This document shows, piece by piece, positions 4,500 to 27,681 of a stretch of 41,330 nt of DNA (its first letter is position 1; every line of letters starts with the position of its first letter). Where the stretch lies: the IMG/VR virus record IMGVR_UViG_3300045988_084973. One strand, 5' to 3'. This stretch comes from a virus. A program made the translations under genes and the position numbers. The notes under the pieces are model-generated. The model did no database searches. It was not told the origin of the DNA and worked only from the letters and a program-made list of their open reading frames with translations.

Positions 4500-5744
4500 T
4501 TGACAGGAATTTTTAAAGGACGATTTCGGGTGCGGTACAACTACGCCCGATTTGGTTACACGCGGGGTGGCGGTAAGACGTGGCACGGCGGCATTGATTT
4601 GGAAGCGCTGGACGATGATACCATTTACATGCCAACCTACAAGGGCAAGAGCATTTCCGGCACGGTGACCCGGGCGCGGATTGTGACCGACAAAAACAAT
4701 GCGACGTGGGAGTGGGGATATTACGTCTGTGTCCAGCTGGACGCAAACCAGACGCCGGATGCCGTCAACTACCTGTATTTCTGCCACTGCGCCAAGCTGT
4801 TGGTCAAGGCTGGGCAGAAAGTCAAAAGCGGCGATGCACTGGCCGTTATGGGCAACACCGGCAATGCCGCGTTGGCAGACCCGCCGTACAAACACTGTCA
4901 CTTCGAGGTGCGTGCCACTGCCACCGGCAAGGGGCTTGACCCGACGGCGTATGCGGGCTGCCCGAATGAAGTGGGAACCTACGGCGACCAGCCTGCGCAG
5001 ACAAGCGGTGAGGAAGTGCTGATTGATGTATCCCACCACCAGGGCGCTATCGACTGGGCGAGTGTTCCCTACCGCGCCATTGTTCGCATCGGGTATCGCG
5101 GTTACGGCAGCGAAAAGCTCATGAAGGATGAGCAGTTCGACGCCAACCTTGCAGGGGCAAAAGCAAGCGGAAAGCTGTTCGGCTTTTACTTCTTCTCGCA
5201 GGCCGTCACGGTGGACGAAGCCCGCGAGGAAGCAGACTTCTGCGCAAGCCTTGCACCGACAGGCTATCCCTTGTTCTTCGACAGCGAATGGGGACACACA
5301 ACCAAGACCGGCGCCCACGATGGCCGCGCAGACAACCTGACGAAAGACCAGCGCACGGCAATCGCAATGGCATTTTGCGAGAAGGCCAAAGCGCACGGAT
5401 TTACGGCAGGCATTTACACATTCACATCGTTTGCAAGCGGGAACATCGACTACGCTTACCTGTGTGAAGATTACATCGGTTGGCTGGCCGATACCCGCAC
5501 AAACTACGACAAAACGCTGCCGCGCTACATCCACCAATACGGGCAGGGCAGCGTCGCAGGCATCACCGGCACGGTCGACCTCAACCATTTTGTTAAGACC
5601 CTGCCTGCAGTGAACAAGCCTGCAAGCAAGCTACAAGTAATTACCATTGGGCCGGTATCGCAGGGAGATGCGGATGCAATCTACTTGCTGTGTAGGGAAC
5701 GCGGCCTGGCGGATGCCGGGCTGTATAAGAGTGAGTGGGCATAA
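4500..5744 (+). CDS. Two-domain endolysin: N-terminal M23 (LytM-type) peptidase plus GH25 muramidase
   Basis: TTG start after GAGGTGA. M23 motifs WHGGID (HxxxD) and HCHFE (HxH). GH25 motif IDVSHHQGAIDW and FFDSEW. Confidence 0.9.
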   Translation: MTGIFKGRFRVRYNYARFGYTRGGGKTWHGGIDLEALDDDTIYMPTYKGKSISGTVTRARIVTDKNNATWEWGYYVCVQLDANQTPDAVNYLYFCHCAKLLVKAGQKVKSGDALAVMGNTGNAALADPPYKHCHFEVRATATGKGLDPTAYAGCPNEVGTYGDQPAQTSGEEVLIDVSHHQGAIDWASVPYRAIVRIGYRGYGSEKLMKDEQFDANLAGAKASGKLFGFYFFSQAVTVDEAREEADFCASLAPTGYPLFFDSEWGHTTKTGAHDGRADNLTKDQRTAIAMAFCEKAKAHGFTAGIYTFTSFASGNIDYAYLCEDYIGWLADTRTNYDKTLPRYIHQYGQGSVAGITGTVDLNHFVKTLPAVNKPASKLQVITIGPVSQGDADAIYLLCRERGLADAGLYKSEWA

Positions 5745-5763: not shown

Positions 5764-6015
5764 ATGACGGATTGGGATATCGTAAAAGACATCGTTGTCC
5801 TTTTGGGGATCATCGTCACCGTGACGGGGCCACTGCTTAAGCTTAACACAAGCATTGTGGAGTTAAAAACGCTGTTGGATAACGTCATCAAGCAGGTGGC
5901 GGACAACGATAAGGGCAACACAGAAAGTCATCGCCGCTTGTGGGCGCACAACACCGAGCAAGACAAAATTTTGACAGACCACGAGCAGCGTTTACACGAC
6001 CTTGAGGATAAGTGA
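5764..6015 (+). CDS. Holin-like or lysis accessory protein (one N-terminal TM segment plus a coiled coil)
   Basis: 83 aa. IVKDIVVLLGIIVTVTGPLL hydrophobic segment followed by a charged helical tail. Lies directly after the endolysin. Confidence 0.5.
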   Translation: MTDWDIVKDIVVLLGIIVTVTGPLLKLNTSIVELKTLLDNVIKQVADNDKGNTESHRRLWAHNTEQDKILTDHEQRLHDLEDK

Positions 6016-6025
6016 GGTAAAATCC

Positions 6026-6220
6026 ATGAACGATTTTTTAAAAAATTTTGCGGCGCTGATTAAGGTGAAAACCATTGTGACGCTTGTGGTGGTTGCGGTT
6101 TTTGCGGTGCTGGCATTGCAGAGCAAATTACAGCCTGACACGGTCATGACCATTGTGACAATGGTCGTGGCTTTTTATTTTGGTACACAGACCGAAAGCA
6201 AGAACAAGAAGGATGAGTAA
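6026..6220 (+). CDS. Holin (two TM segments, charged C-terminus)
   Basis: GAGGTAAAA RBS. 64 aa with TIVTLVVVAVFAVLAL and VMTIVTMVVAFYFG, then a KNKKDE tail. Confidence 0.65.
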   Translation: MNDFLKNFAALIKVKTIVTLVVVAVFAVLALQSKLQPDTVMTIVTMVVAFYFGTQTESKNKKDE

Positions 6221-6222
6221 TC

Positions 6223-6387
6223 ATGCCAAAGTTTGATTTTGTCGGCGGTTTGCTGACCGATGAAGAAACGGACGTTTTGCAGCTTCGGCGGCGCGGCTGG
6301 CGCAATGCTGATATTGCGGCAGAACTGAATTGCAGCGAGCGCACGGTAAAACGGCGCGTACACAGCATCAAAAACAAAATAGGCTGA
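6223..6387 (+). CDS. 54-aa stand-alone LuxR/GerE-type (sigma-70 region-4-like) HTH protein
   Basis: MPKFDFVGGLLTDEETDVLQLRRRGWRNADIAAELNCSERTVKRRVHSIKNKIG matches the LT..E..VL.L...G....IA..L..S..TVK pattern. Confidence 0.6.
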   Translation: MPKFDFVGGLLTDEETDVLQLRRRGWRNADIAAELNCSERTVKRRVHSIKNKIG

Positions 6388-6393
6388 TTTAAA

Positions 6394-6430
6394 GGGCACG
6401 GCTGCTTTTGCGGCCGCGCCCTTTTTTCTT
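6394..6430 (+). terminator. Rho-independent terminator
   Basis: GGGCACGGC / GCCGCGCCC stem (one mismatch) followed by TTTTTT. Confidence 0.7.
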
Positions 6431-6442
6431 TTGTCCCAAAGA

Positions 6443-6490
6443 CGGCACAATGTTGGCACTTTACTGGCCTACGTTGTGCCGTTTTTTTTT
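6443..6490 (+). terminator. Second tandem rho-independent terminator
   Basis: CGGCACAA / TTGTGCCG stem followed by a run of nine T. Confidence 0.65.
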
Positions 6491-6519
6491 GTACAATTAA
6501 GGAAAAAGGAGCGGTGCAG

Positions 6520-6897
6520 ATGGCATATAGGCAAATCAACCTAAACCCAGAGCAAAAGCGCGTTGGCGATTGCACCGTCAGAGCCATTGCGGCCGCCACG
6601 CATCAAGAGTGGGCGGCTGTATATGCGGCGCTTGTGTTGGCAGGATTTGAACTACATGATATGCCGTCTGCAAACTATGTTTGGGGCAGCTATCTGCGCC
6701 GATGCGGGTGGAAGCGCTACACGTTGCCAAACAGCTGCCCGGATTGTTACACAGTGGCGCAGTTTGCAAAAGACCACCCGGACGGAACATACATTTTGGC
6801 AATGGCTACGCATGTTGTGTGCGTGCAGAATGGGGATTGGCTAGATACATGGGACAGCGGAGATGAAGTGCCGCTGTACTACTGGCAGAAAGGATGA
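6520..6897 (+). CDS. Hypothetical protein with an ordered Cys..His..Asp pattern (possible papain-fold)
   Basis: AAGGAAAAAGGAG RBS. GDCTVRA ... ATHVVCV ... DTWDSGD. First gene of the accessory cassette. Confidence 0.6.
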   Translation: MAYRQINLNPEQKRVGDCTVRAIAAATHQEWAAVYAALVLAGFELHDMPSANYVWGSYLRRCGWKRYTLPNSCPDCYTVAQFAKDHPDGTYILAMATHVVCVQNGDWLDTWDSGDEVPLYYWQKG

Positions 6898-6903
6898 TTG
6901 ACA

Positions 6904-7335
6904 ATGGCGTTTGGCGTACCGTATCAGCCCGGATTTGCGCCGGGATATTACCCGATGGGGCAGCCGTCCGCAATGCCAGACCAGCTGGCGCAGCTGCGGC
7001 AGAACTACCAGCAACCGCAGCAGTCCGCGCCTATCATCTGGGTGCAGGGTGAAGAGGGCGCGAAGGCCTACATGGTGGCGGCTGGAAACAGTGTGCTACT
7101 GATGGACAGCGAAAACAGTGTGTTCTACATCAAGTCTACTGATGCAAGCGGGATGCCGCAACCACTGCGAGTATTTGACTACACAGAGCGCGGCAAACAG
7201 GCCCCGCAGAAGCCCGAAACAGTAGACGATAAGTTTGTCACGCGAGCAGAGTTTGACGCTCTACGTGCCCGCTTTGACGCGCTGACGGCAGATAAGCCGG
7301 GAAAGGGTGATAACAATGCCAAATCCACTGTTTAA
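6904..7335 (+). CDS. Hypothetical protein (accessory cassette)
   Basis: 143-aa ORF. Pro/Gln-rich N-terminus, IIWVQGEEGAKAYMV core, helical C-terminus. Confidence 0.6.
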   Translation: MAFGVPYQPGFAPGYYPMGQPSAMPDQLAQLRQNYQQPQQSAPIIWVQGEEGAKAYMVAAGNSVLLMDSENSVFYIKSTDASGMPQPLRVFDYTERGKQAPQKPETVDDKFVTRAEFDALRARFDALTADKPGKGDNNAKSTV

Positions 7336-7534
7336 TGCTCTGGGCGGCGGTAAGCTGCCCGGCCCGATGGGGCAGTTTCAGCAGATGATGCAGCAGTTTC
7401 AGCAATTTCGGCAAAATTTTCAGGGCGACCCAAAACAAGAGGTGCAGAAACTGCTACAGTCCGGGAAGATGAGCCAGCAGCAGCTTAACCAGTTGCAGAC
7501 GATGGCGCAGCAGTTTCAAGGATTTCTGAAATAG
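7316..7534 (+). CDS. Gln-rich small protein (accessory cassette)
   Basis: 72 aa, MPNPLFNALGGG..QFQQMMQQFQQFRQNFQ. Overlaps the end of the upstream gene. Confidence 0.5.
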   Translation: MPNPLFNALGGGKLPGPMGQFQQMMQQFQQFRQNFQGDPKQEVQKLLQSGKMSQQQLNQLQTMAQQFQGFLK

Positions 7535-7594
7535 GTTTGACCGTGCGCACGGTGAACATACATTAACTTTGATATTTTTTGAAAGGAGAATAAC

Positions 7595-8353
7595 ATGAGT
7601 CTTTCTTCGGACGGCACTGTAATGACGATGCCTGTTCAGCCCGCAAATACCAACAGCGGCAACGGCTGGGGTTTTGGAGGCGACGGCGCGTGGTGGATTA
7701 TTATTCTGTTCTTGTTCGTATTTTGCGGCTGGGGCGGTAACTGGGGTGGCAATGGCGGCTTTGGTGCTGGCAACGGCGCTGGGGTGGTTGACGGCTATGT
7801 GCTGACCTCTGATTTCGCCAACGTTGAGCGAAAAATCGACAGTGTGAACGATGGCCTGTGCAATGGTTTCTACCAGCAGGCGCAGCTTGTAAACGGTGTG
7901 CAGAACGCTATGCAGCAGGGCTTTATGTCGGCTGAAATCAGCCGTGCAAATCAGCAGGCGGCGTTTATGCAGCAGCTGAATGCCATGCAGATGCAGCAGG
8001 CCAACTGCTGCTGCGAGACCCGCGCAGCAATCCAGGGAGTGAATTACAACCTGGCCACGCAGGCATGCGAGACCCGGCAGAGCATCAACACTGGTACGCG
8101 CGACATCATCGACAACCAGAACGCCAACGCAAGAGCGATTCTTGACGCGATGACCGCACAGCGCATCGAAGCTAAGGACGCCAAGATTGCCGAGCAGAAC
8201 CAGCAGATTTTCGCTGCTCAGCTTGCCGCAAGTCAGGCGGCGCAGAACAGCTATCTGCTGAACCAGCTGCGCCCATTGCCTGTGCCCGCCTACCAGTCTT
8301 GCAACCCCTGGGCAGCTGGCACTTATAACGGCTGCAACGGCTGCGGCTGCTAA
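7595..8353 (+). CDS. Membrane protein with a Gly/Trp-rich segment flanking one TM helix, a Gln/Asn-rich coiled coil and a Cys-rich C-terminus
   Basis: AAAGGAGAATAAC RBS. GWGFGGDGAWWIIILFLFVFCGWGGNWGGNGGFGAGNG, NCCCETR, C-terminal NGCNGCGC. Confidence 0.65.
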   Translation: MSLSSDGTVMTMPVQPANTNSGNGWGFGGDGAWWIIILFLFVFCGWGGNWGGNGGFGAGNGAGVVDGYVLTSDFANVERKIDSVNDGLCNGFYQQAQLVNGVQNAMQQGFMSAEISRANQQAAFMQQLNAMQMQQANCCCETRAAIQGVNYNLATQACETRQSINTGTRDIIDNQNANARAILDAMTAQRIEAKDAKIAEQNQQIFAAQLAASQAAQNSYLLNQLRPLPVPAYQSCNPWAAGTYNGCNGCGC

Positions 8354-8464
8354 AACCGAATACGGCAACTTGTCGGAACAGCCGACATGTTCGGCCCCGT
8401 GCCGATGATGCAAAATGTGGCGGGGCAATCGTCCCGCCACTATTTTTTTGAAAGGAATGATTTT

Positions 8465-8887
8465 ATGGCTGAATTTACAAACGCCAATACCGTAAGCGTG
8501 GCAGCAGGCCAGAACGTGCCACTGACGGAAACGGCAGTAGCGGGTAAGGGCTGTGTCGTACACAGAGAGGGCGCCGGTATTGTTACGCTGCGCGGCATTA
8601 CAAACCAGTGCAAAGCCCGTTTCAAAGTAGGATTTGGTGCAAACATTGCTATCCCTACCGGCGGCACAGTGGAAGCTATTACGGCTGCACTTTCCATCAA
8701 CGGAGAACCGCTGAACAGTGCGAGTGCAATCGTGACACCGGCAGCAGTAGAAAACTATTTTAATATTTACGTCACGGCTTTTGTTGAAGTTCCGCGCGGC
8801 TGCTGCCTTACCGTTGCCGCCGAAAACACAAGCACACAAACCGTTTTGTTTGCGAACGCAAACTTTATGGTTGAGAGAGTGAGCTGA
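8465..8887 (+). CDS. Small beta-rich protein. Pattern-level resemblance to BclA C-terminal / C1q-TNF-like jelly-roll domains (tentative).
   Basis: 140 aa. QNVPLTETAV..ARFKVGFGANIA..LSINGEPL..ANANFMVERV. Confidence 0.6.
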   Translation: MAEFTNANTVSVAAGQNVPLTETAVAGKGCVVHREGAGIVTLRGITNQCKARFKVGFGANIAIPTGGTVEAITAALSINGEPLNSASAIVTPAAVENYFNIYVTAFVEVPRGCCLTVAAENTSTQTVLFANANFMVERVS

Positions 8888-8900
8888 AAGGAGCGCTATT

Positions 8901-9296
8901 ATGAGTATGAAAGTTATGTACGATTTAAAGGACATGCTGTGCGCAGAGCTTGACGAAATCGGCAAAAAAGGCGAAATGTCTGCTGGCGACTTGGAAACTG
9001 TTCACAAGCTGACTGACACCATCAAAAACATCGACAAAATTGTCATGCTGGAAGATGACGGCTACAGCCGAGATGAAGATTACAGCCGGGATGGTGATTG
9101 GGGCACCAATATGCGCGGCAATTATGGACGCGGAAGCAGCTATGCGCGGCGCGGTTCGCATTATGTGCGCGGCCATTACAGCCGAGACGATGCGCGAGAC
9201 AGCATGATGCGAAAGCTGGAAGACATGTTGCGAAACGTCGATGGATACGACCGCGAGACTATCCAGCATTGCATCGATGAACTGAAAAACACTTGA
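8901..9296 (+). CDS. Hypothetical protein with an Arg/Gly/Tyr/Asp-rich disordered centre
   Basis: AAAGGAG RBS. 131 aa, YSRDEDYSRDGDWG..GSSYARRGSHYVRGHYSRDD. Confidence 0.6.
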   Translation: MSMKVMYDLKDMLCAELDEIGKKGEMSAGDLETVHKLTDTIKNIDKIVMLEDDGYSRDEDYSRDGDWGTNMRGNYGRGSSYARRGSHYVRGHYSRDDARDSMMRKLEDMLRNVDGYDRETIQHCIDELKNT

Positions 9297-9310
9297 CGGG
9301 GGTGGCGGCT

Positions 9311-9664
9311 ATGGTGGACGTGCGAGAGATTGACGGCGCTATAGCCGAAATCGAAAATAGCGAACTTACCATGACCAGAGTTAAAAATCTGGCGGCGCTG
9401 TATGTTGTGAAAAATCAGCAACTTGCAGATGTATCCCCTGCCCCACAAAAAGCAGAATGGCAAGAGCCTGCGCGTTACTACGAAGCGGCAGAGCCACCCA
9501 CAAGGGCTGCTGTTGGCGGCAGTGACTTTTTGCAGGCTGTGTCAAACGTAGACACCACAGCGGCGCTGAACGTGCTGGATGAGCTTATGTCGGCCTTGTA
9601 TGTAACAAACCCTAAAGTTTATAATGGCGTAATGCGGAAATTGGAGCGTTTACAGGATGAGTGA
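9311..9664 (+). CDS. Hypothetical protein (accessory cassette)
   Basis: 117 aa counted from the internal ATG after GGGGGTGG. C-terminal motif is shared with the next small ORF. Confidence 0.55.
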   Translation: MVDVREIDGAIAEIENSELTMTRVKNLAALYVVKNQQLADVSPAPQKAEWQEPARYYEAAEPPTRAAVGGSDFLQAVSNVDTTAALNVLDELMSALYVTNPKVYNGVMRKLERLQDE

Positions 9665-9794
9665 ATTTTTGGAGATTGTAAACAAGGCCGATACCGGGCG
9701 AGTGTGGCGTGTGCTGGATGAGTTTATGGATGCGCTGAAAGAAGCACGGCCGGAAGTGTATAACGATTTGGTACACAGCTTGCAGAGAAAATAA
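9657..9794 (+). CDS. 45-aa hypothetical protein, paralogous to the C-terminus of 9311..9664
   Basis: MSEFLEIVNKADTGRVWRVLDEFMDALKEARPEVYNDLVHSLQRK compared with ..ALNVLDELMSALYVTNPKVYNGVMRKLERLQ. Confidence 0.4.
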   Translation: MSEFLEIVNKADTGRVWRVLDEFMDALKEARPEVYNDLVHSLQRK

Positions 9795-9796
9795 GC

Positions 9797-9819
9797 AAGT
9801 GTGTACTAAAGTGTGTACT
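9797..9819 (+). repeat. Two tandem copies of AAGTGTGTACT; candidate integrase arm-type sites (P arm)
   Basis: Copies at 9797..9807 and 9809..9819. The same 11-mer recurs twice at 9993..10016. Confidence 0.6.
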
Positions 9820-9829
9820 TGAAAAAGGA

Positions 9830-9866
9830 AACACCGTAGATTTCAACGAATCTACGGTGTTTTTTG
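9830..9866 (+). terminator. Rho-independent terminator closing the accessory cassette
   Basis: AACACCGTAGA / TCTACGGTGTT stem followed by TTTTT. Confidence 0.8.
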
Positions 9867-9892
9867 TGGTGGAGGATGGGGGACTCGAACCC
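9867..9892 (-). other. attP core candidate: a 3'-terminal fragment of a tRNA gene (T-loop, acceptor 3' strand, ACCA)
   Basis: The reverse complement reads GGGTTCGAGTCCCCCATCCTCCACCA. Sequence further 5' does not fold into D or anticodon arms, so only the 3' end of a tRNA is present. Confidence 0.7.
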
Positions 9893-9992
9893 TGACGGAT
9901 TAAAACCCGCCCGTTCCAAATCATCGTATTGCCGCTATTTATTCAACGCGCCGTTTTGCATTTCCGCCCCTAAAAAACGTCCCCACAGAAAA

Positions 9993-10016
9993 AAGTGTGT
10001 ACTAAAAGTGTGTACT
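9993..10016 (+). repeat. Two more copies of AAGTGTGTACT; candidate arm-type sites (P' arm), overlapping the integrase stop codon
   Basis: Copies at 9993..10003 and 10006..10016, in the same orientation as 9797..9819. Confidence 0.6.
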
Positions 10017-11081
10017 TTTTACAATCTCATCAAAGACGTTTTCAAGGTTGTTTGCAATCGCTCTGTCCTGTCCATTGATCGCATGAGAATATACCCCGTA
10101 GGTGTCCATGTTTCGGCTGTGTCCTACAGTCTGTTTCAGCTGCCCCATCGGCAGGTTTGCCGCAATGCTGACGAATGTGTGCCGCAGCTCGTACAAGGTG
10201 CATTTTGTAATGCCGTTTGCCTCGCAGTATCGCTCCCACCCCCGCCGGACGTTCCGTTCTTCCTCTTGGATGAACACCCGTTGCTGCATTCCGGTCAACT
10301 CTTTCTGTGCTTCCAGCTCGGCCATCGACCGCGCCGACAGCACGACAGCGCGCGGTGCATTTTCGTTTTTCCCTCTTGTTTCCCTTTTATATATAGTAAC
10401 TGATCTGTGTATCAATGCTTTCCCGTCCTGGATGTCGCCCCATTCAAGGCCCAGCAGCTCGCCGGGCCTCATCCCGGTAAACACTGCCAGCCGGTAATAA
10501 TGGATGCGTTCATCCGGCACCCTGCGCCCTCTGTATAAGGTAGTATCCACGTTTAAAAGCGTCACAATGTCAGACGGTTGCAGGATGGTCCGATCTTTAT
10601 AGCGCGCCCCATCTGGTACATGCAGGTCTTCCGGCTCAAATGTGGACCATCCAGACCGACGGCAGAACTTGAAGAAAGCCCGGAGATCACCTGCTATATT
10701 CTTGATTGTTTTCTTGCTCCGGCCAGCAGCAAAAGCGTCATCAAGGATGTTCTGCACTGTCTGCTCTGTGATTGCAGTCAATCGCTTGGTTCCGATTCTC
10801 GGCCCTATCCAGGCATTATACCGGCCCTGCATGGGCTTCCAGTTTCCCTCAGATGATACTTTCATCTGCCGTGTCATAAACTCAGCGTAAGCCGCCTCTA
10901 CGGTATAGGTTCGCGTCTGCAATCCCTTTTCCAGCCAGTCATCCGCCTTCTTGTTTGCTTCCCTCTGGCCGGTTCTTCCAGGCTTGGCGCTGGTAAAGGT
11001 TTTGCGCACGCCGTCTTTCTGCACGTTTATCTGCCAGCGCTGGGCAGATTCAATCCATCTCGCTGTATTTGTTCTTTTCAT
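10002..11081 (-). CDS. int: Tyrosine recombinase (phage integrase)
   Basis: 359 aa. C-terminal catalytic pattern LRHTFVS ... GHSRNMDTYGVYSH. Lies adjacent to the tRNA fragment. Confidence 0.95.
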   Translation of the reverse strand: MKRTNTARWIESAQRWQINVQKDGVRKTFTSAKPGRTGQREANKKADDWLEKGLQTRTYTVEAAYAEFMTRQMKVSSEGNWKPMQGRYNAWIGPRIGTKRLTAITEQTVQNILDDAFAAGRSKKTIKNIAGDLRAFFKFCRRSGWSTFEPEDLHVPDGARYKDRTILQPSDIVTLLNVDTTLYRGRRVPDERIHYYRLAVFTGMRPGELLGLEWGDIQDGKALIHRSVTIYKRETRGKNENAPRAVVLSARSMAELEAQKELTGMQQRVFIQEEERNVRRGWERYCEANGITKCTLYELRHTFVSIAANLPMGQLKQTVGHSRNMDTYGVYSHAINGQDRAIANNLENVFDEIVKSTHF

Positions 11082-19421: not shown

Positions 19422-20225
19422 ATGGGCAACGATGGATACATCAAACTGTACCGCCGGATGATGAAATGGGGCTGGTACACAGATACCCCGACAAAATGTG
19501 TGTTCCTGCATCTGCTTTTCCTCGCCTGCTATGAGCCTTGCTATTTTAGAGGAGTTCAGCTTGAAGCCGGGCAAACAGTCGCATCTATCCGGCAGATAGC
19601 GACAGATACCGGACTTTCTGTGAAGCAAGTTCGAACCGCAATTGAACACTTAAAACAGACACAAGAAGTGGCACAAAAATCATGTGGAAAATTCAGCGTG
19701 TACACGGTAAATAATTACACCGACTATCAGTGTATAGGCACAGAAACAGGCACGAATGAGGGCACAGCAAGGGCACAGCAAGGGCACAGCAAGGGCACAC
19801 ACCCTAATATAAAGAAGAATAAAGAAGATAAAGAAGTATATATGTCCACCCAAGATGCACCTGAAAATGAACCTACTTCAATGTTCGATCAGTTCTGGTA
19901 TGCTTACCCGAAAAAGACAGGAAAGCTAAAAGCCCGTGAAAGCTTTGCAAAGAACGTCAAAGATACTGCTACCATGAAATCCTTGCTTGATAGCCTCGCC
20001 TACTTAAAGACTACAGAGGGCTGGAAAAAAGAGAACGGCAGCTTTATTCCGATGCCGACAACGTTCCTTAACCAGCACCGGTGGGAAGATGAGACAGCGC
20101 AGCCACCAAAGCCGAAACCTGAACCGAAAAAGCGCGTCCCTATTTTTGACCGTGAATACACGCGGGAAGATATGCTGAATGGTGCGGTTCCAATAGTTGT
20201 CGGGTGGAAAGAGGTGGACGACTGA
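19422..20225 (+). CDS. Replication initiation / replisome-organiser protein (DnaD-like N-terminal winged helix)
   Basis: GYIKLYRRMMKWGWY..VFLHLLFLA.., then FDQFWYAYPKK. Lies immediately upstream of the helicase. Confidence 0.75.
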   Translation: MGNDGYIKLYRRMMKWGWYTDTPTKCVFLHLLFLACYEPCYFRGVQLEAGQTVASIRQIATDTGLSVKQVRTAIEHLKQTQEVAQKSCGKFSVYTVNNYTDYQCIGTETGTNEGTARAQQGHSKGTHPNIKKNKEDKEVYMSTQDAPENEPTSMFDQFWYAYPKKTGKLKARESFAKNVKDTATMKSLLDSLAYLKTTEGWKKENGSFIPMPTTFLNQHRWEDETAQPPKPKPEPKKRVPIFDREYTREDMLNGAVPIVVGWKEVDD

Positions 20226-26879: not shown

Positions 26880-26955
26880 GCTGGATTAACTCAACTGGTA
26901 GAGTATCTGTTTTGTAATCAGACGGTTCGGGGTTCAAGTCCTCGATTCAGCACCA
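26880..26955 (+). tRNA. tRNA-Thr (anticodon UGU), CCA encoded
   Basis: Manual cloverleaf: GCTGGAT/ATTCAGC acceptor, ACTC/GAGT D stem, loop TTTGTAA, CGGGG-TTCAAGT-CCTCG T arm. 76 nt. Confidence 0.85.
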
Positions 26956-27198
26956 ATGCCGATGATACGGGTAAAGGTAGCAGGGCCGGACGCGGCAATT
27001 GTGTTCCCCGTTAGGCAACCGCCACGAGCCTACTGACAGTGCGTAACATGTGGCGGATTCTGCAATACAGGGTGGCTCTCTGCCGTGGAAGTCGGCCAAC
27101 TTTAGCTGAAACATTGCTATGGATTGCCAAGCCAAACAGGTTCATGCCGATATGCCCCGCTAAAGAAACTTGCAGGGCAGAGCGCATGAGCCTTATAT

Positions 27199-27282
27199 GC
27201 CAACATAGCTTAACTGGTAAAGCCGGGCCTCATGACAGCATAGCTGCGGGTTTAGTTGCGGGTTCAAATCCTGCTGTTGGCG
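27199..27282 (+). ncRNA. tRNA-like element C, or a pseudo-tRNA: canonical acceptor, D and T arms and a CTCATGA segment, but no anticodon stem
   Basis: GCCAACA/TGTTGGC, GCTT-AACTGGTA-AAGC, GCGGG-TTCAAAT-CCTGC. The 34 nt between the D and T arms cannot form a 5-bp stem around CAT. Confidence 0.5.
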
Positions 27283-27681
27283 AAAGCTGGGTCGCTCCCA
27301 CCGGTGAAAGCCCGGCGCAGGCAAAACGCGATAGCTAACCTGAACGCTATAAGCAAAGCGGCAAGCCGATACGGAGCGCGGAGCGATGGCAAGACGCAAC
27401 GGGACTGTGAGAGCCTGAAAACTTTTGCCCGCACAGTGAAGTGCGAAACCAAACTTCAACCGCGAATCGGTGCGCGGGTATAAATGCCGCCGGATGCCGC
27501 AAGCCCGGGCGGGGTACAAATGCAGGGAATCAAAAAGCGCGTGGACAGCAGGCACGTTAAATTCTGACTGTACAAAAGCGTTGCGGATTTGCTCACCGCA
27601 ACGGGTGAGACCGGCACAGCATAAACCGGTAGGGCGGGAACGCGCTTTTCCTCCGGCGCAAAGGGGTTCTGGGGGATATAA

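Follow-up and report, generated by a model that had tools for sequence, protein, structure and literature searches.

The gene cassette described here has a full counterpart in Butyrivibrio phage Ceridwen, a plaque-forming phage without an integrase that was seen only in the lytic cycle on Butyrivibrio fibrisolvens, where the full cassette follows lysin, holin and HTH genes and gene order is conserved down to 25-45% protein identity. A reduced form occurs in Clostridium perfringens phages and lies, in phage CPD1, between KilA and the recombination genes. More distantly, a parallel layout is found in Crassvirales, where the order in the crAss-like phage cr116_1 is holin, endolysin, HTH, peptidase, o4-like protein, small beta/Cys protein, coiled-coil protein, Arg/Asp/Tyr-rich protein and PolyVal peptidase, and the same core occurs in the plaque-forming Bacteroides phage C3_41T2LP, so that a peptidase is kept, but by a non-homologous replacement. 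Proteins similar to o4, the membrane protein of the cassette, occur alone in viruses of Methanomassiliicoccales. The nearest structural counterparts of one product, o5, are the Bacillus exosporium proteins BclA (C-terminal domain, CTD), ExsF and BxpB (background in PMC12357932).

The locus studied here lies in a window of 41,330 nucleotides, the whole stretch of viral DNA that was analyzed (IMG/VR record IMGVR_UViG_3300045988_084973). A sequence-only reading had described eight tightly packed plus-strand genes of unrecognized function between the lysis genes and attP, and had interpreted them as a moron or lysogenic-conversion cassette and a multi-component system. The observation was confirmed, as all eight ORFs (6520-9794, referred to as o1-o8) are present and under purifying selection, with a median dN/dS of 0.07-0.23 against 22-71 diverged homologs per gene. 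The interpretation was only partly supported: the genes behave as a coherent unit, but the lysogenic-conversion reading based on the position next to attP was not supported. The features of the region are as follows (o1 residues are numbered from GTG 6514).

6223..6387, plus strand: 54-aa stand-alone HTH protein (LuxR/GerE type, sigma-70 region-4-like), starting 3 nt after the holin gene; probable regulator of the cassette.
6399..6428, plus strand: intrinsic-terminator-like hairpin (stem 6399-6416) and T run after the HTH gene.
6433..6497, plus strand: putative cassette promoter/operator, with five 11-nt direct repeats (6433-6480; cores GTCCC, GGCAC, GGCAC, GGCCT, GTGCC; TTGNCNC-like, resembling -35 boxes) abutting a conserved -10 element, TACAAT (6492-6497).
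6520..6897, plus strand: o1, predicted 125-aa cytoplasmic minimal papain-like protein with invariant Cys20, His100 and Asp111 and a conserved CPDC motif.
6898..7335, plus strand: o2, with a Pro/Gln/Tyr-rich N-terminal low-complexity region, a conserved central domain (IIWVQGEEGAKAY...FYIKSxDASGMP) and a short C-terminal coiled coil.
7307..7534, plus strand: o3, helical Gln/Met/Phe-rich peptide of about 72 aa (27% Gln).
7540..7553, plus strand: GC-rich palindrome/hairpin in the o3-o4 spacer.
7595..8353, plus strand: o4, 252-aa bitopic membrane protein with one hydrophobic helix (residues about 27-45) flanked by Gly/Trp-rich segments, a Gln/Asn-rich helical stalk of about 190 residues with a nearly invariant (>=90% conserved) CCC motif, an LRPxPxPAY motif and a C-terminal Cys cluster.
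8372..8449, plus strand: structured RNA element in the o4-o5 spacer, with three hairpins (8372-8386, 8391-8405, 8417-8440) followed by a T run directly before the o5 RBS.
8465..8887, plus strand: o5, 140-aa all-beta protein, predicted C1q/TNF-like jelly roll, with invariant Cys30, Cys49 and Cys113-Cys114 and no signal peptide.
8901..9296, plus strand: o6, with helical ends flanking an Arg/Gly/Tyr/Ser/Asp-rich disordered center.
9293..9664, plus strand: o7, helical protein with the C-terminal domain LDELMxxLxxxNPxxYxxVMRKL.
9657..9794, plus strand: o8, 45-aa paralog of the C-terminal domain of o7.
9829..9866, no strand assigned: 14-bp-stem hairpin with T runs on both sides, a bidirectional terminator between the cassette and the convergent integrase gene (10002-11081, minus strand).
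9867..9901, minus strand: tRNA 3'-end-like sequence (T-arm, acceptor stem and CCA), probably the attP core, flanked by two GTGTGTACTAAA(A)GTGTGTACT repeats at 9799-9819 and 9995-10016; ARAGORN finds no complete tRNA there.

Judged from RBS spacing and homolog N-termini, the likely true starts are ATG 6520 for o1, ATG 6904 for o2, ATG 7316 for o3 (72 aa, as originally described), ATG 8465 for o5 (140 aa, not the 166-aa ORF) and ATG 9311 for o7. Some structural details of the sequence-only reading needed correction. Of the two tandem terminators placed after the lysis genes, only the first looks like a plain terminator, while the second (about 6444-6490) coincides with the phased repeats and the -10 element and is better read as the promoter/operator of the cassette. 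Nor is the unit uniformly tight, since a 60-nt spacer with the conserved GC palindrome, whose structure is kept across divergent loci while the sequence changes, lies between o3 and o4, and a 111-nt spacer with three conserved hairpins, the last of them terminator-like (8417-8440 plus T run), lies between o4 and o5. Of the 22 predicted pairs in the latter spacer, 10 show compensatory changes over 11 loci, and no Rfam family matches; the element probably acts as an attenuator, terminator or stabilizer separating two sub-units. The closing hairpin (9829-9862) is real and abuts the tRNA-like fragment next to the integrase gene.

Co-occurrence and synteny of the genes in other genomes, which had been named beforehand as a check, were far beyond chance. 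Genes o1-o6 are in the same order in 147-154 of 160 viral loci, although these were fetched by similarity to o4 or o5, or by DNA similarity to the cassette (2 loci), and are thus biased toward carriers; o8 is present in 130 of the 160 and is more variable than the other genes. Most of 31 loci from bacterial genomes also hold o1-o6 in this order where the contig is long enough, with o5 identity down to 42%, whereas three of them (L182, L184 and L188 in our numbering of loci) show only o4/o5, with or without o6. Across these about 190 loci the surrounding lysin, holin and integrase modules are exchanged. The module is found in thousands of gut phages, and o4, its most widely distributed component, forms 1920 clusters at 50% identity, with homologs in C. 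perfringens phages, Crassvirales, a Bacteroides phage and archaeal viruses.

Each product matches a PHROG family of unknown function, except o8, which has no hit, and o7, which matches only at E=0.043; the families include phrog_3754 (o1), phrog_21718 (o2, E=4e-34), phrog_22984 (o3, E=1e-22), phrog_16490 (o4, E=3e-46) and phrog_28802 (o6). No product matches a standard phage function in Pfam, NCBIfam, PADLOC or PDB sequence searches. The earlier suggestion that o1 is papain-like fits its AF2 model (pLDDT 93), in which the Cys lies at a helix N-terminus and His and Asp on adjacent strands, but o1 has no close solved relative, the best PDB fold hits being weak (Josephin deubiquitinases, E=0.11). 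For o2, an alignment including the Ceridwen, CPD1 and Lachnospira homologs supports the conserved domain, with no Pfam or PDB match. The dN/dS of o3 is 0.07. With a hydropathy maximum of 1.78, o4 is the only transmembrane candidate of the cassette, and no product has a signal peptide. The protein o5, previously described as small and beta-rich, is confidently modeled as a C1q/TNF-like jelly roll (AF2 pLDDT 86.8); the top Foldseek PDB hits are F-BclA CTD, BxpB and ExsF/ExsFA (E about 2e-7, TM 0.68-0.77), hits in BFVD are stand-alone 130-145-aa proteins of gut phages (TM 0.81-0.91), and Pfam BclA_C remains below threshold (E=0.005, 17 versus 38 bits). Homologs of o6 occur in Ceridwen (35% identity), with Arg/Asp/Tyr-rich positional analogs in the Crassvirales and Bacteroides phage modules, and homologs of o7 in Ceridwen (E=2e-10) and CPD1 (E=7e-9). 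The C-terminal helix motif reported to be shared by the last two proteins was confirmed by hhalign (probability 99.7%, E=9.5e-26) and corresponds to a 45-residue domain.

The upstream HTH protein matches NCBIfam sigma70-ECF region 4 (E=6e-6) and LuxR-type regulators, and a homolog carries the Pfam domain GerE. Its recognition-helix variant covaries with the repeat core upstream of o1 in 135 loci, even across insertions of 1-2 kb. The architecture of repeats plus -10 element is conserved in most loci with the repeat sequence changed, but a few divergent loci (L001, L002, L082 and L139) show neither.

Together with the HTH gene, the eight genes form a self-contained accessory module of tailed viruses of strictly anaerobic gut microbes with its own regulation, and not cargo specific to this prophage. 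In further support, homing endonuclease genes are inserted at five different places in or beside the module in relatives, which fits a highly conserved stretch of DNA shared among co-infecting phages. As for its mechanism, we tentatively propose, with less than even confidence, that the module builds a membrane-anchored stalk-and-head assembly during lytic development. In this view, o4 would supply the membrane anchor, the Gly/Trp-rich juxtamembrane segments, the long helical stalk and a Cys-rich tip, and o5 a trimeric head of the BclA-CTD/ExsF type, while the papain-like hydrolase o1 would process one of the components and the low-complexity and helical proteins o2, o3 and o6-o8 would act as scaffolds or chaperones. 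Since only o4 has a hydrophobic segment and none has a signal peptide, assembly would take place in the cytoplasm or on the inner face of the membrane. Transcription would start at a dedicated promoter whose -35 region is replaced by phased repeats bound by the HTH protein, and co-transcription of the HTH gene with the holin gene would make the cassette a very late unit associated with lysis or egress. The analysis itself establishes the genes, their synteny and distribution, the (modeled) folds of o1 and o5, the single transmembrane segment of o4, the o7/o8 paralogy, the promoter and repeat architecture with its covariation with the HTH, and the structured internal spacer; the physical association of o4 with o5, a protease substrate within the cassette, binding of the HTH protein to the repeats, late timing and any role in egress are inferred from sequence, without experimental or expression data on timing, localization or interactions.

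The stalk-and-head proposal draws on the architecture of o4, on the C1q/TNF-like fold of o5, on the position of o5 directly downstream of o4 wherever both occur, on depositors' annotations of o4 homologs as "spike" or "viral fiber", and on a weak resemblance of the o4 profile to the influenza HA2 fusion-peptide-plus-coiled-coil region (E about 0.08), which is below significance and may only reflect composition. However, the o4-o5 partnership rests on adjacency alone and the sub-units are separable: locus L316 keeps o5-o7 without o1-o4, archaeal virus vir215 has only an o4-like gene, the group of locus L283 has a shorter o4 analog without an o5-like gene, and the structured terminator splits the cassette into o1-o4 and o5-o8. 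The repeats, covering positions -71 to -27, could equally be a repressor operator, in which case the cassette would be on in lysogens and off late in infection. Adjacency to lysis genes is not universal either, as the module lies among recombination genes in C3_41T2LP and about 3 kb after the holin gene in CPD1, and an egress role across Gram-positive, Gram-negative and archaeal envelopes has no precedent.

Alternatively, o4 and o5 might form the shaft and knob of an accessory head or tail fiber, with o3 and o6-o8 as assembly chaperones and o1 as a maturation protease that might remove the hydrophobic N-terminus. A coiled-coil shaft with a C1q/TNF-like knob is the classic viral fiber design, no component needs secretion, the BFVD hits of o5 include collagen/C1q fiber proteins and a "fibritin neck whiskers" entry, its PDB hits include phage receptor-binding knobs (the phi812 central spike and the A-1(L) short tail fiber), and o4 homologs have been annotated as "outer capsid protein/viral fiber" or "spike". 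These names are automatic annotations, not tests, and we consider this reading unlikely, as the module sits after the lysis genes behind a terminator and its own regulated promoter instead of in the structural operon, o4 has a strongly hydrophobic TM-like helix, and the module is shared by sipho-, podo- (Crassvirales) and myo-type viruses with unrelated virion parts, between which a fiber needing a docking site would not move easily. Somewhat less likely still is superinfection exclusion or inter-phage competition by a system anchored in the cytoplasmic membrane through o4 and expressed from its own promoter in lysogens, or early by virulent phages, to block entry or development of other phages. 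The promoter and terminators, the membrane component, the position at the prophage end next to attR, the horizontal movement as a unit between phages with different structural, lysis and integration modules, and other accessory inserts at the same spot (minus-strand genes in L035 and L316, a giant ORF in L283) would fit. But none of 5027 PADLOC models is matched, the only hit being weak and sub-significant (o3 against RTas1808, E=0.0036). Exclusion genes are usually single, small and fast-evolving, while these eight are strongly conserved (o5 is 90-100% identical across hundreds of genomes, dN/dS about 0.1), and conservation across phyla and into archaeal viruses is hard to reconcile with recognition of a particular invader.

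The lysogenic-conversion reading appears more doubtful yet. In its sharpest form, Cys-, Tyr- and Gln-rich coat-like proteins, an ExsF/BclA-like protein, a papain/transglutaminase-like enzyme and a GerE-type regulator would be made in the mother cell to modify the spores of lysogens. The structural matches of o5, the Pfam GerE assignment, the lack of signal peptides expected for coat proteins made in the mother cell, a sigma-70-family gene beside the cassette in Lachnospira intestinalis and the attP-side position speak for it, and since the cassette ends up at the attR end of this prophage, expression in lysogens is not excluded. However, the integrase-less Ceridwen, the reduced form in C. perfringens phage CPD1 and the parallel module in Crassvirales and a plaque-forming Bacteroides phage speak against a reading based on the position next to attP. 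Moreover, the cassette is intact in Ceridwen and abundant in Gemmiger-type prophages, and core parts occur in phages of Bacteroides and of methanogenic archaea; none of these hosts is known to sporulate. Its G+C content (0.50-0.54) does not stand out from the flanks, there is neither a collagen stalk nor an exosporium leader, and GerE is only the Pfam name for LuxR-type HTH domains. That the genes are unrelated small cargo is very unlikely and already largely refuted by the synteny, and the parallel architecture in Crassvirales with its functionally equivalent but non-homologous peptidase also speaks against it, although sub-units do occur apart, as in L316 and vir215, and o1 homologs occur alone in Bacillus Tsamsa-like phages, Geobacillus GBK2 and Prevotella Lak phages.

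The window is a complete temperate siphophage genome of about 41 kb, in which the cassette of eight open reading frames, here named o1 to o8 in their order along the plus strand, lies between the lysis genes and the integrase gene. The region is laid out as follows:

4500-5744, endolysin
5764-6015, BhlA-like protein
6026-6220, holin
6223-6387, 54-aa HTH protein
6399-6416, stem followed by a T run
6433-6480, five direct repeats with an 11-nt period
6492-6497, conserved TACAAT element
6514/6520-9794, eight plus-strand ORFs (o1 to o8)
8372-8449, three-hairpin RNA element in the o4-o5 spacer
9829-9862, closing hairpin
9867-9901, minus strand, fragment resembling a tRNA 3' end
10002-11081, minus strand, integrase

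Homolog N-termini and RBS spacing suggest that the true starts are at 6520 (o1), 6904 (o2), 7316 (o3), 8465 (o5) and 9311 (o7). Seven of the eight ORFs match PHROG families, all annotated as "unknown function" (o7 only at E=0.043), while o8 matches none, and no product reaches a Pfam, NCBIfam or PADLOC threshold. All eight evolve under purifying selection, with median dN/dS of 0.07-0.23 over 22-71 pairs each, and are therefore real genes. The closing hairpin is real as well, as is the tRNA-like fragment that probably marks attP. The eight-gene cassette described by the sequence-only reading is thus confirmed. Two near-identical copies of GTGTGTACTAAA(A)GTGTGTACT, at 9799-9819 and 9995-10016, flank the putative attP core and may be integrase arm-type sites, the second copy overlapping the end of the integrase gene.

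The anatomy differs in part from that reading, which had placed two tandem terminators after the lysis genes. The first stem with its T run looks like an ordinary terminator, but the second coincides with five direct repeats of a TTGNCNC-like core which run up to the conserved TACAAT. In most loci the same architecture is kept, with three to five phased repeats followed by a TAYAAT-like -10 element about 30 nt before the start codon, although a few divergent loci (L001, L002, L082 and L139; L numbers designate the individual loci compared) show neither. The repeat sequence itself changes between loci (GGCAC, GGCGY, GTCGC, GTCCY), and in 135 loci the repeat core tracks the recognition-helix variant of the upstream HTH protein, even where 1-2 kb of other genes separates the two. 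We read this arrangement as a putative promoter/operator of the cassette controlled by the HTH protein, but this is inferred from sequence covariation alone, and shared ancestry could produce the same correlation. NCBIfam matches of the HTH protein (E=2e-6 to 6e-6) to LuxR/GerE-type or sigma region-4 HTH domains cover only the HTH segment and are below the full-family cut-offs, while Pfam GerE is recorded for a homolog. Six direct repeats that share the 5-nt GGCAC core, with an 11-12-nt period, also lie at 19737-19798 inside a 267-aa ORF (19422-20225), where they look like the iterons of a replication origin.

The cassette is also internally divided. A GC palindrome whose structure is conserved lies in the o3-o4 spacer, and the 111-nt o4-o5 spacer folds into three hairpins, of which the last is terminator-like and is followed by a T run directly before the o5 RBS. 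Of 22 predicted pairs in this element, ten show compensatory changes over 11 divergent loci, and an Rfam search of the cassette region returned no family. A sigma-E/K-type promoter upstream of o4 (CATACATTA) was considered but rejected, since the motif is not conserved in other loci.

The o5 product is modeled (AF2, pLDDT 86.8) as a nine-strand jelly roll of the C1q/TNF type. Its best Foldseek matches in the PDB, at probability 1.00, are the Bacillus exosporium proteins F-BclA CTD (the tip of F-ENA), BxpB, ExsF/ExsFA and BclA-CTD (PDB 1wck, 7r1m, 8d02, 9h3d, 9h38; E about 2e-7, TM 0.68-0.77), followed by TNF-family ligands and phage receptor-binding knobs. In the viral structure library the closest matches are stand-alone 130-145-aa proteins of uncultured gut sipho-, podo- and myoviruses (TM 0.81-0.91), two of which are automatically named "BclA protein." Like ExsF/BxpB, o5 is a stand-alone domain of about 140 aa without signal peptide, and since ExsF trimers act as docking platforms for the N-termini of filament proteins (PMC12357932), a head or adaptor role is suggested. 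However, sequence identity is only 10-15%, and although the match to Pfam BclA_C (PF18573) is full length (5-128 of 128 profile positions), its score of 17.2 bits (E=0.005) lies below the gathering threshold of 38. No GXY repeats of a collagen-like stalk occur in any of the eight products, and NCBIfam returned no match at E<=1 to the exosporium-leader model TIGR03720 named in PMC12357932. Four Cys residues of o5 (C30, C49, C113 and C114) are invariant.

The o1 product (125 aa) is modeled with pLDDT 93 and shows the arrangement of papain-like (clan CA) cysteine hydrolases, with Cys20 at the N-terminus of a helix and His100 and Asp111 on adjacent beta strands, all three being invariant in 62 sequences. 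The best matches among solved structures are nevertheless weak, namely Josephin-2 (E=0.11, TM 0.45), ataxin-3 and USP-like deubiquitinases, no sequence match was found in Pfam, NCBIfam or the PDB, and the protein is much smaller than characterized members; its activity is only predicted. One database record calls a homolog a "putative papain-like endopeptidase." We also considered a double-glycine bacteriocin system, with a C39-like peptidase and a leader, but the GG in o3 is not conserved in Butyrivibrio phage Ceridwen or Lachnospira, and o1 does not match C39.

The o4 product is the only one with a transmembrane-grade hydrophobic segment (residues about 27-45), which is flanked by Gly/Trp-rich stretches and followed by a Gln/Asn-rich helical region of about 190 residues with a nearly invariant (>=90% conserved) CCC motif, an LRPxPxPAY motif and a Cys-rich tail. 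Its predicted N-terminal membrane segment, long helical region, conserved cysteines and position just downstream of holin and endolysin genes, in Clostridia phages and in the crAss-like phage cr116_1, recall in outline the i-spanins (Rz type) of two-component spanin systems. But no lipoprotein partner is present (no other product has a hydrophobic N-terminus, and no lipobox was seen in the translations), most hosts are monoderm, mainly Clostridia, or archaeal, and o4, at about 250-300 aa with a C-terminal Cys cluster, comes with six or seven further proteins. Its profile also weakly resembles the Gly/Trp-rich fusion peptide plus coiled coil of influenza HA2, a class I viral fusion protein (E about 0.08), which explains the "spike" and "fiber" annotations of homologs but is not significant.

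Of the remaining products, o2 has a Pro/Gln/Tyr-rich N-terminus, a conserved central domain and a short coiled coil, o3 is 27% Gln, o6 has an Arg/Gly/Tyr/Ser/Asp-rich center, and o7 and o8 share a 45-residue C-terminal domain (hhalign probability 99.7%). None of the products other than o4 has a signal peptide-like N-terminus. Pfam, NCBIfam and PADLOC scans of all products gave only sub-threshold noise, and PDB profile searches for o1, o2, o4 and o5 gave nothing significant. Among the anti-phage defense models of PADLOC, the only hit for o1-o8 was o3 against RTas1808 (E=0.0036), which is not significant, and the HTH protein matches only generic HTH parts of CARF/CasR models. Pfam scans of 51 diverse o4 homologs and 17 o2 homologs found no shared domain and no fusions.

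The module is extremely widespread in gut viruses and crosses phyla and, for o4, domains. Searches with o1, o4 and o5 each returned more than 7,800 significant 90%-identity clusters as a lower bound, and the o4 family alone comprises 1,920 clusters at 50% identity, almost all of 240-300 aa. One o5 cluster is named from Gemmiger formicilis. In 160 IMG/VR and GenBank loci, which had been chosen by similarity to o4 or o5 or by DNA similarity to the cassette, o1-o6 are present in the same order in 147-154, whereas the lysin, BhlA, holin and integrase genes of the same loci vary or are replaced. Thirty-one loci of bacterial genomes carry the cassette or, on short contigs and in L182, parts of it, with o5 identity down to 42%; they come from Oscillospiraceae (Oscillibacter, Lawsonibacter, Dysosmobacter), Ruminococcus, Clostridium sp. 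CAG:413 and Lachnospiraceae. Integrated copies place the cassette at the attR end, next to host rnf genes. In L182 (6108-10071; isolate genome of Lachnospira intestinalis, NZ_JBBMFS010000001) a variant with o2- to o6-like genes but no o1 lies directly beside a host-like sigma-70-family gene (regions 3 and 4) and a gene judged by eye to be YlmC/YmxH-like, with a Rha-type regulator downstream.

Beyond temperate phages of Oscillospiraceae, Butyrivibrio phage Ceridwen, which has been seen only in the lytic cycle and has no integrase (PMC7372960), carries lysin, holin, an HTH gene, a terminator and o1-o7 in the same order at 27-45% identity. Clostridium perfringens phage CPD1 and five relatives carry the o4-like protein, and in CPD1 itself we also found o2- and o3-like genes, a Cys-rich beta protein at the o5 position and an o7-like gene. 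In crAss-like cr116_1 the order is holin, endolysin, HTH, a Zn-peptidase-like gene, o4-like (E=1e-16), a 136-aa beta/Cys protein, a 168-aa protein with a beta domain and coiled coil, a 74-aa Arg/Asp/Tyr-rich protein and a PolyVal metallopeptidase, and the plaque-forming Bacteroides phage C3_41T2LP shows the same core. Viruses assigned to Methanomassiliicoccales carry o4-like alone. Homologs of o1 (38-41% identity) occur without the rest of the cassette in Geobacillus phage GBK2 (L197 5001-5390), where the gene lies just upstream of the recombinase, RecT and SSB genes, and in Bacillus phage Tsamsa (gp15, L198 3974-4369), where in Tsamsa-like phages it lies among small ORFs near the start of the genome; Prevotella Lak megaphages also carry one.

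Natural variants and insertions were found in relatives. L316 (9001-11189) keeps the HTH gene and o5-o7 but lacks o1-o4, and both L316 and L035 (5075-5872) carry minus-strand genes, including one with an excisionase-like HTH, between the HTH gene and the cassette. Homing endonuclease-like insertions lie at five different places in or beside the module, with HNH/I-HmuI-type genes in at least three relatives (L196 9518-10312, L199 5044-5667 and L201 2934-3554) and an insert in L001 (8864-9415) annotated only as "endonuclease," while L107 and L113 carry 0.8-1.0-kb inserts of undetermined content in the o4-o5 spacer; the module appears to be a recurrent homing target. When near-identical phages were compared to ask whether the cassette is dispensable, the apparent cassette-less relatives L206 and L246 turned out to have a 7-kb insertion, after which an HTH gene follows. 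In L206 (the same contig as L283, 2058-9004), a close relative with the same tail fiber, lysin and holin, a 270-aa Gln/Asn/Ala-rich ORF and a 2027-aa giant ORF are inserted between the holin gene and the HTH gene, and the cassette is replaced by a shorter, 187-aa o4 analog and two small ORFs, the L283 group lacking the rest; in L246 (refetched as L287) no cassette gene was detected.

The synteny, the selection and the parallel architectures show one functional unit, and the fact that the peptidase slot is filled by non-homologous enzymes in different lineages points the same way. The proposal that the genes form a multi-component system is therefore supported, but that of a lysogenic-conversion moron at attP is not, so that the interpretation given by the sequence-only reading holds only in part. 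A conserved -10 element with phased repeats and flanking hairpins, a putative autonomous promoter and terminators, is present, and in this phage the cassette does lie between the lysis genes and attP. However, it is conserved as a block in integrase-less Ceridwen and occurs, in whole or in part, in CPD1, Crassvirales and C3_41T2LP, its G+C content matches that of its flanks, and it is under strong purifying selection (dN/dS about 0.1) across thousands of variants. The unit is not specific to this prophage, to lysogeny or to spore-forming hosts.

The best-supported physical picture is a membrane-anchored stalk (o4) with a C1q-like head (o5), which a processing hydrolase (o1) and low-complexity or helical partners would complete. 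As the partners lack export signals, assembly would be inside the cell. The HTH gene abuts the holin gene and the module recurs next to lysis genes in Clostridia phages and in a crAss-like phage, which leads us to favor a very late role associated with egress or the membrane. This remains tentative and is more likely to be wrong than right: in contrast to the unity of the module, the contact between o4 and o5, the activity and substrate of o1, the binding of the HTH protein and the timing of expression are all inferences, and the repeats could equally be a repressor operator.

Among the alternatives, a virion fiber with its chaperones seems unlikely but comes closest, and a system for exclusion of or competition with other phages is somewhat less likely still. 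The lysogenic-conversion reading, including a spore-surface version, we consider improbable. The latter had been prompted by the ExsF-like fold, the GerE-type HTH and the sigma-factor neighbor in Lachnospira, but was downgraded once the cassette was found in Ceridwen, a phage of Butyrivibrio fibrisolvens, and its core in Bacteroides and archaeal viruses; these hosts, like Gemmiger-type organisms, are not known to sporulate. That the genes are unrelated cargo is very improbable. A more far-reaching, and unlikely, possibility is that the module is a mobile viral machine shared across phyla and domains, in viruses of Clostridia and Bacteroidota and, for its o4 core, of methanogenic archaea, all of them gut anaerobes. 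It would build a fusion-protein-like membrane stalk (Gly/Trp-rich segment plus coiled coil, as in HA2) capped by a C1q/TNF-like head, and would represent a new class of virus-encoded device for membrane remodeling or egress, or for targeting vesicles and cells, working on the one envelope layer common to all these hosts or on the animal gut environment after lysis.

No defense, lysis, exosporium or secretion system that we tested fits the whole set. The component families are cataloged as PHROGs of unknown function, and literature searches on prophages with exosporium, Crassvirales "spike" proteins, lysis modules and Bacteroides phage proteomics found no paper describing the module. We therefore regard it as lying outside known kinds of system, where "new" means uncharacterized and not a demonstrated new mechanism. 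A conserved, apparently separately regulated machine of seven or eight proteins, found as a module or by its core in phages of Oscillospiraceae, Lachnospiraceae, C. perfringens and Bacteroides, in Crassvirales and in viruses of gut methanogens, and in some of the most abundant human gut viruses, represents a real gap in phage biology and adds a candidate module to the standard modular map of phage genomes. Its HTH protein and phased repeats form a compact putative regulatory unit whose specificity appears to covary with the repeat sequence, and three cultured, plaque-forming phages, Ceridwen, CPD1 (with its relatives) and C3_41T2LP, carry the module or its core and make it directly accessible to experiment.

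Elsewhere in the genome, two phage-encoded tRNA genes (26880-26955 and 27198-27283) lie just upstream of the packaging genes, one being tRNA-Thr(TGT) and the other an unusually long (86 nt) tRNA called His with anticodon ATG.
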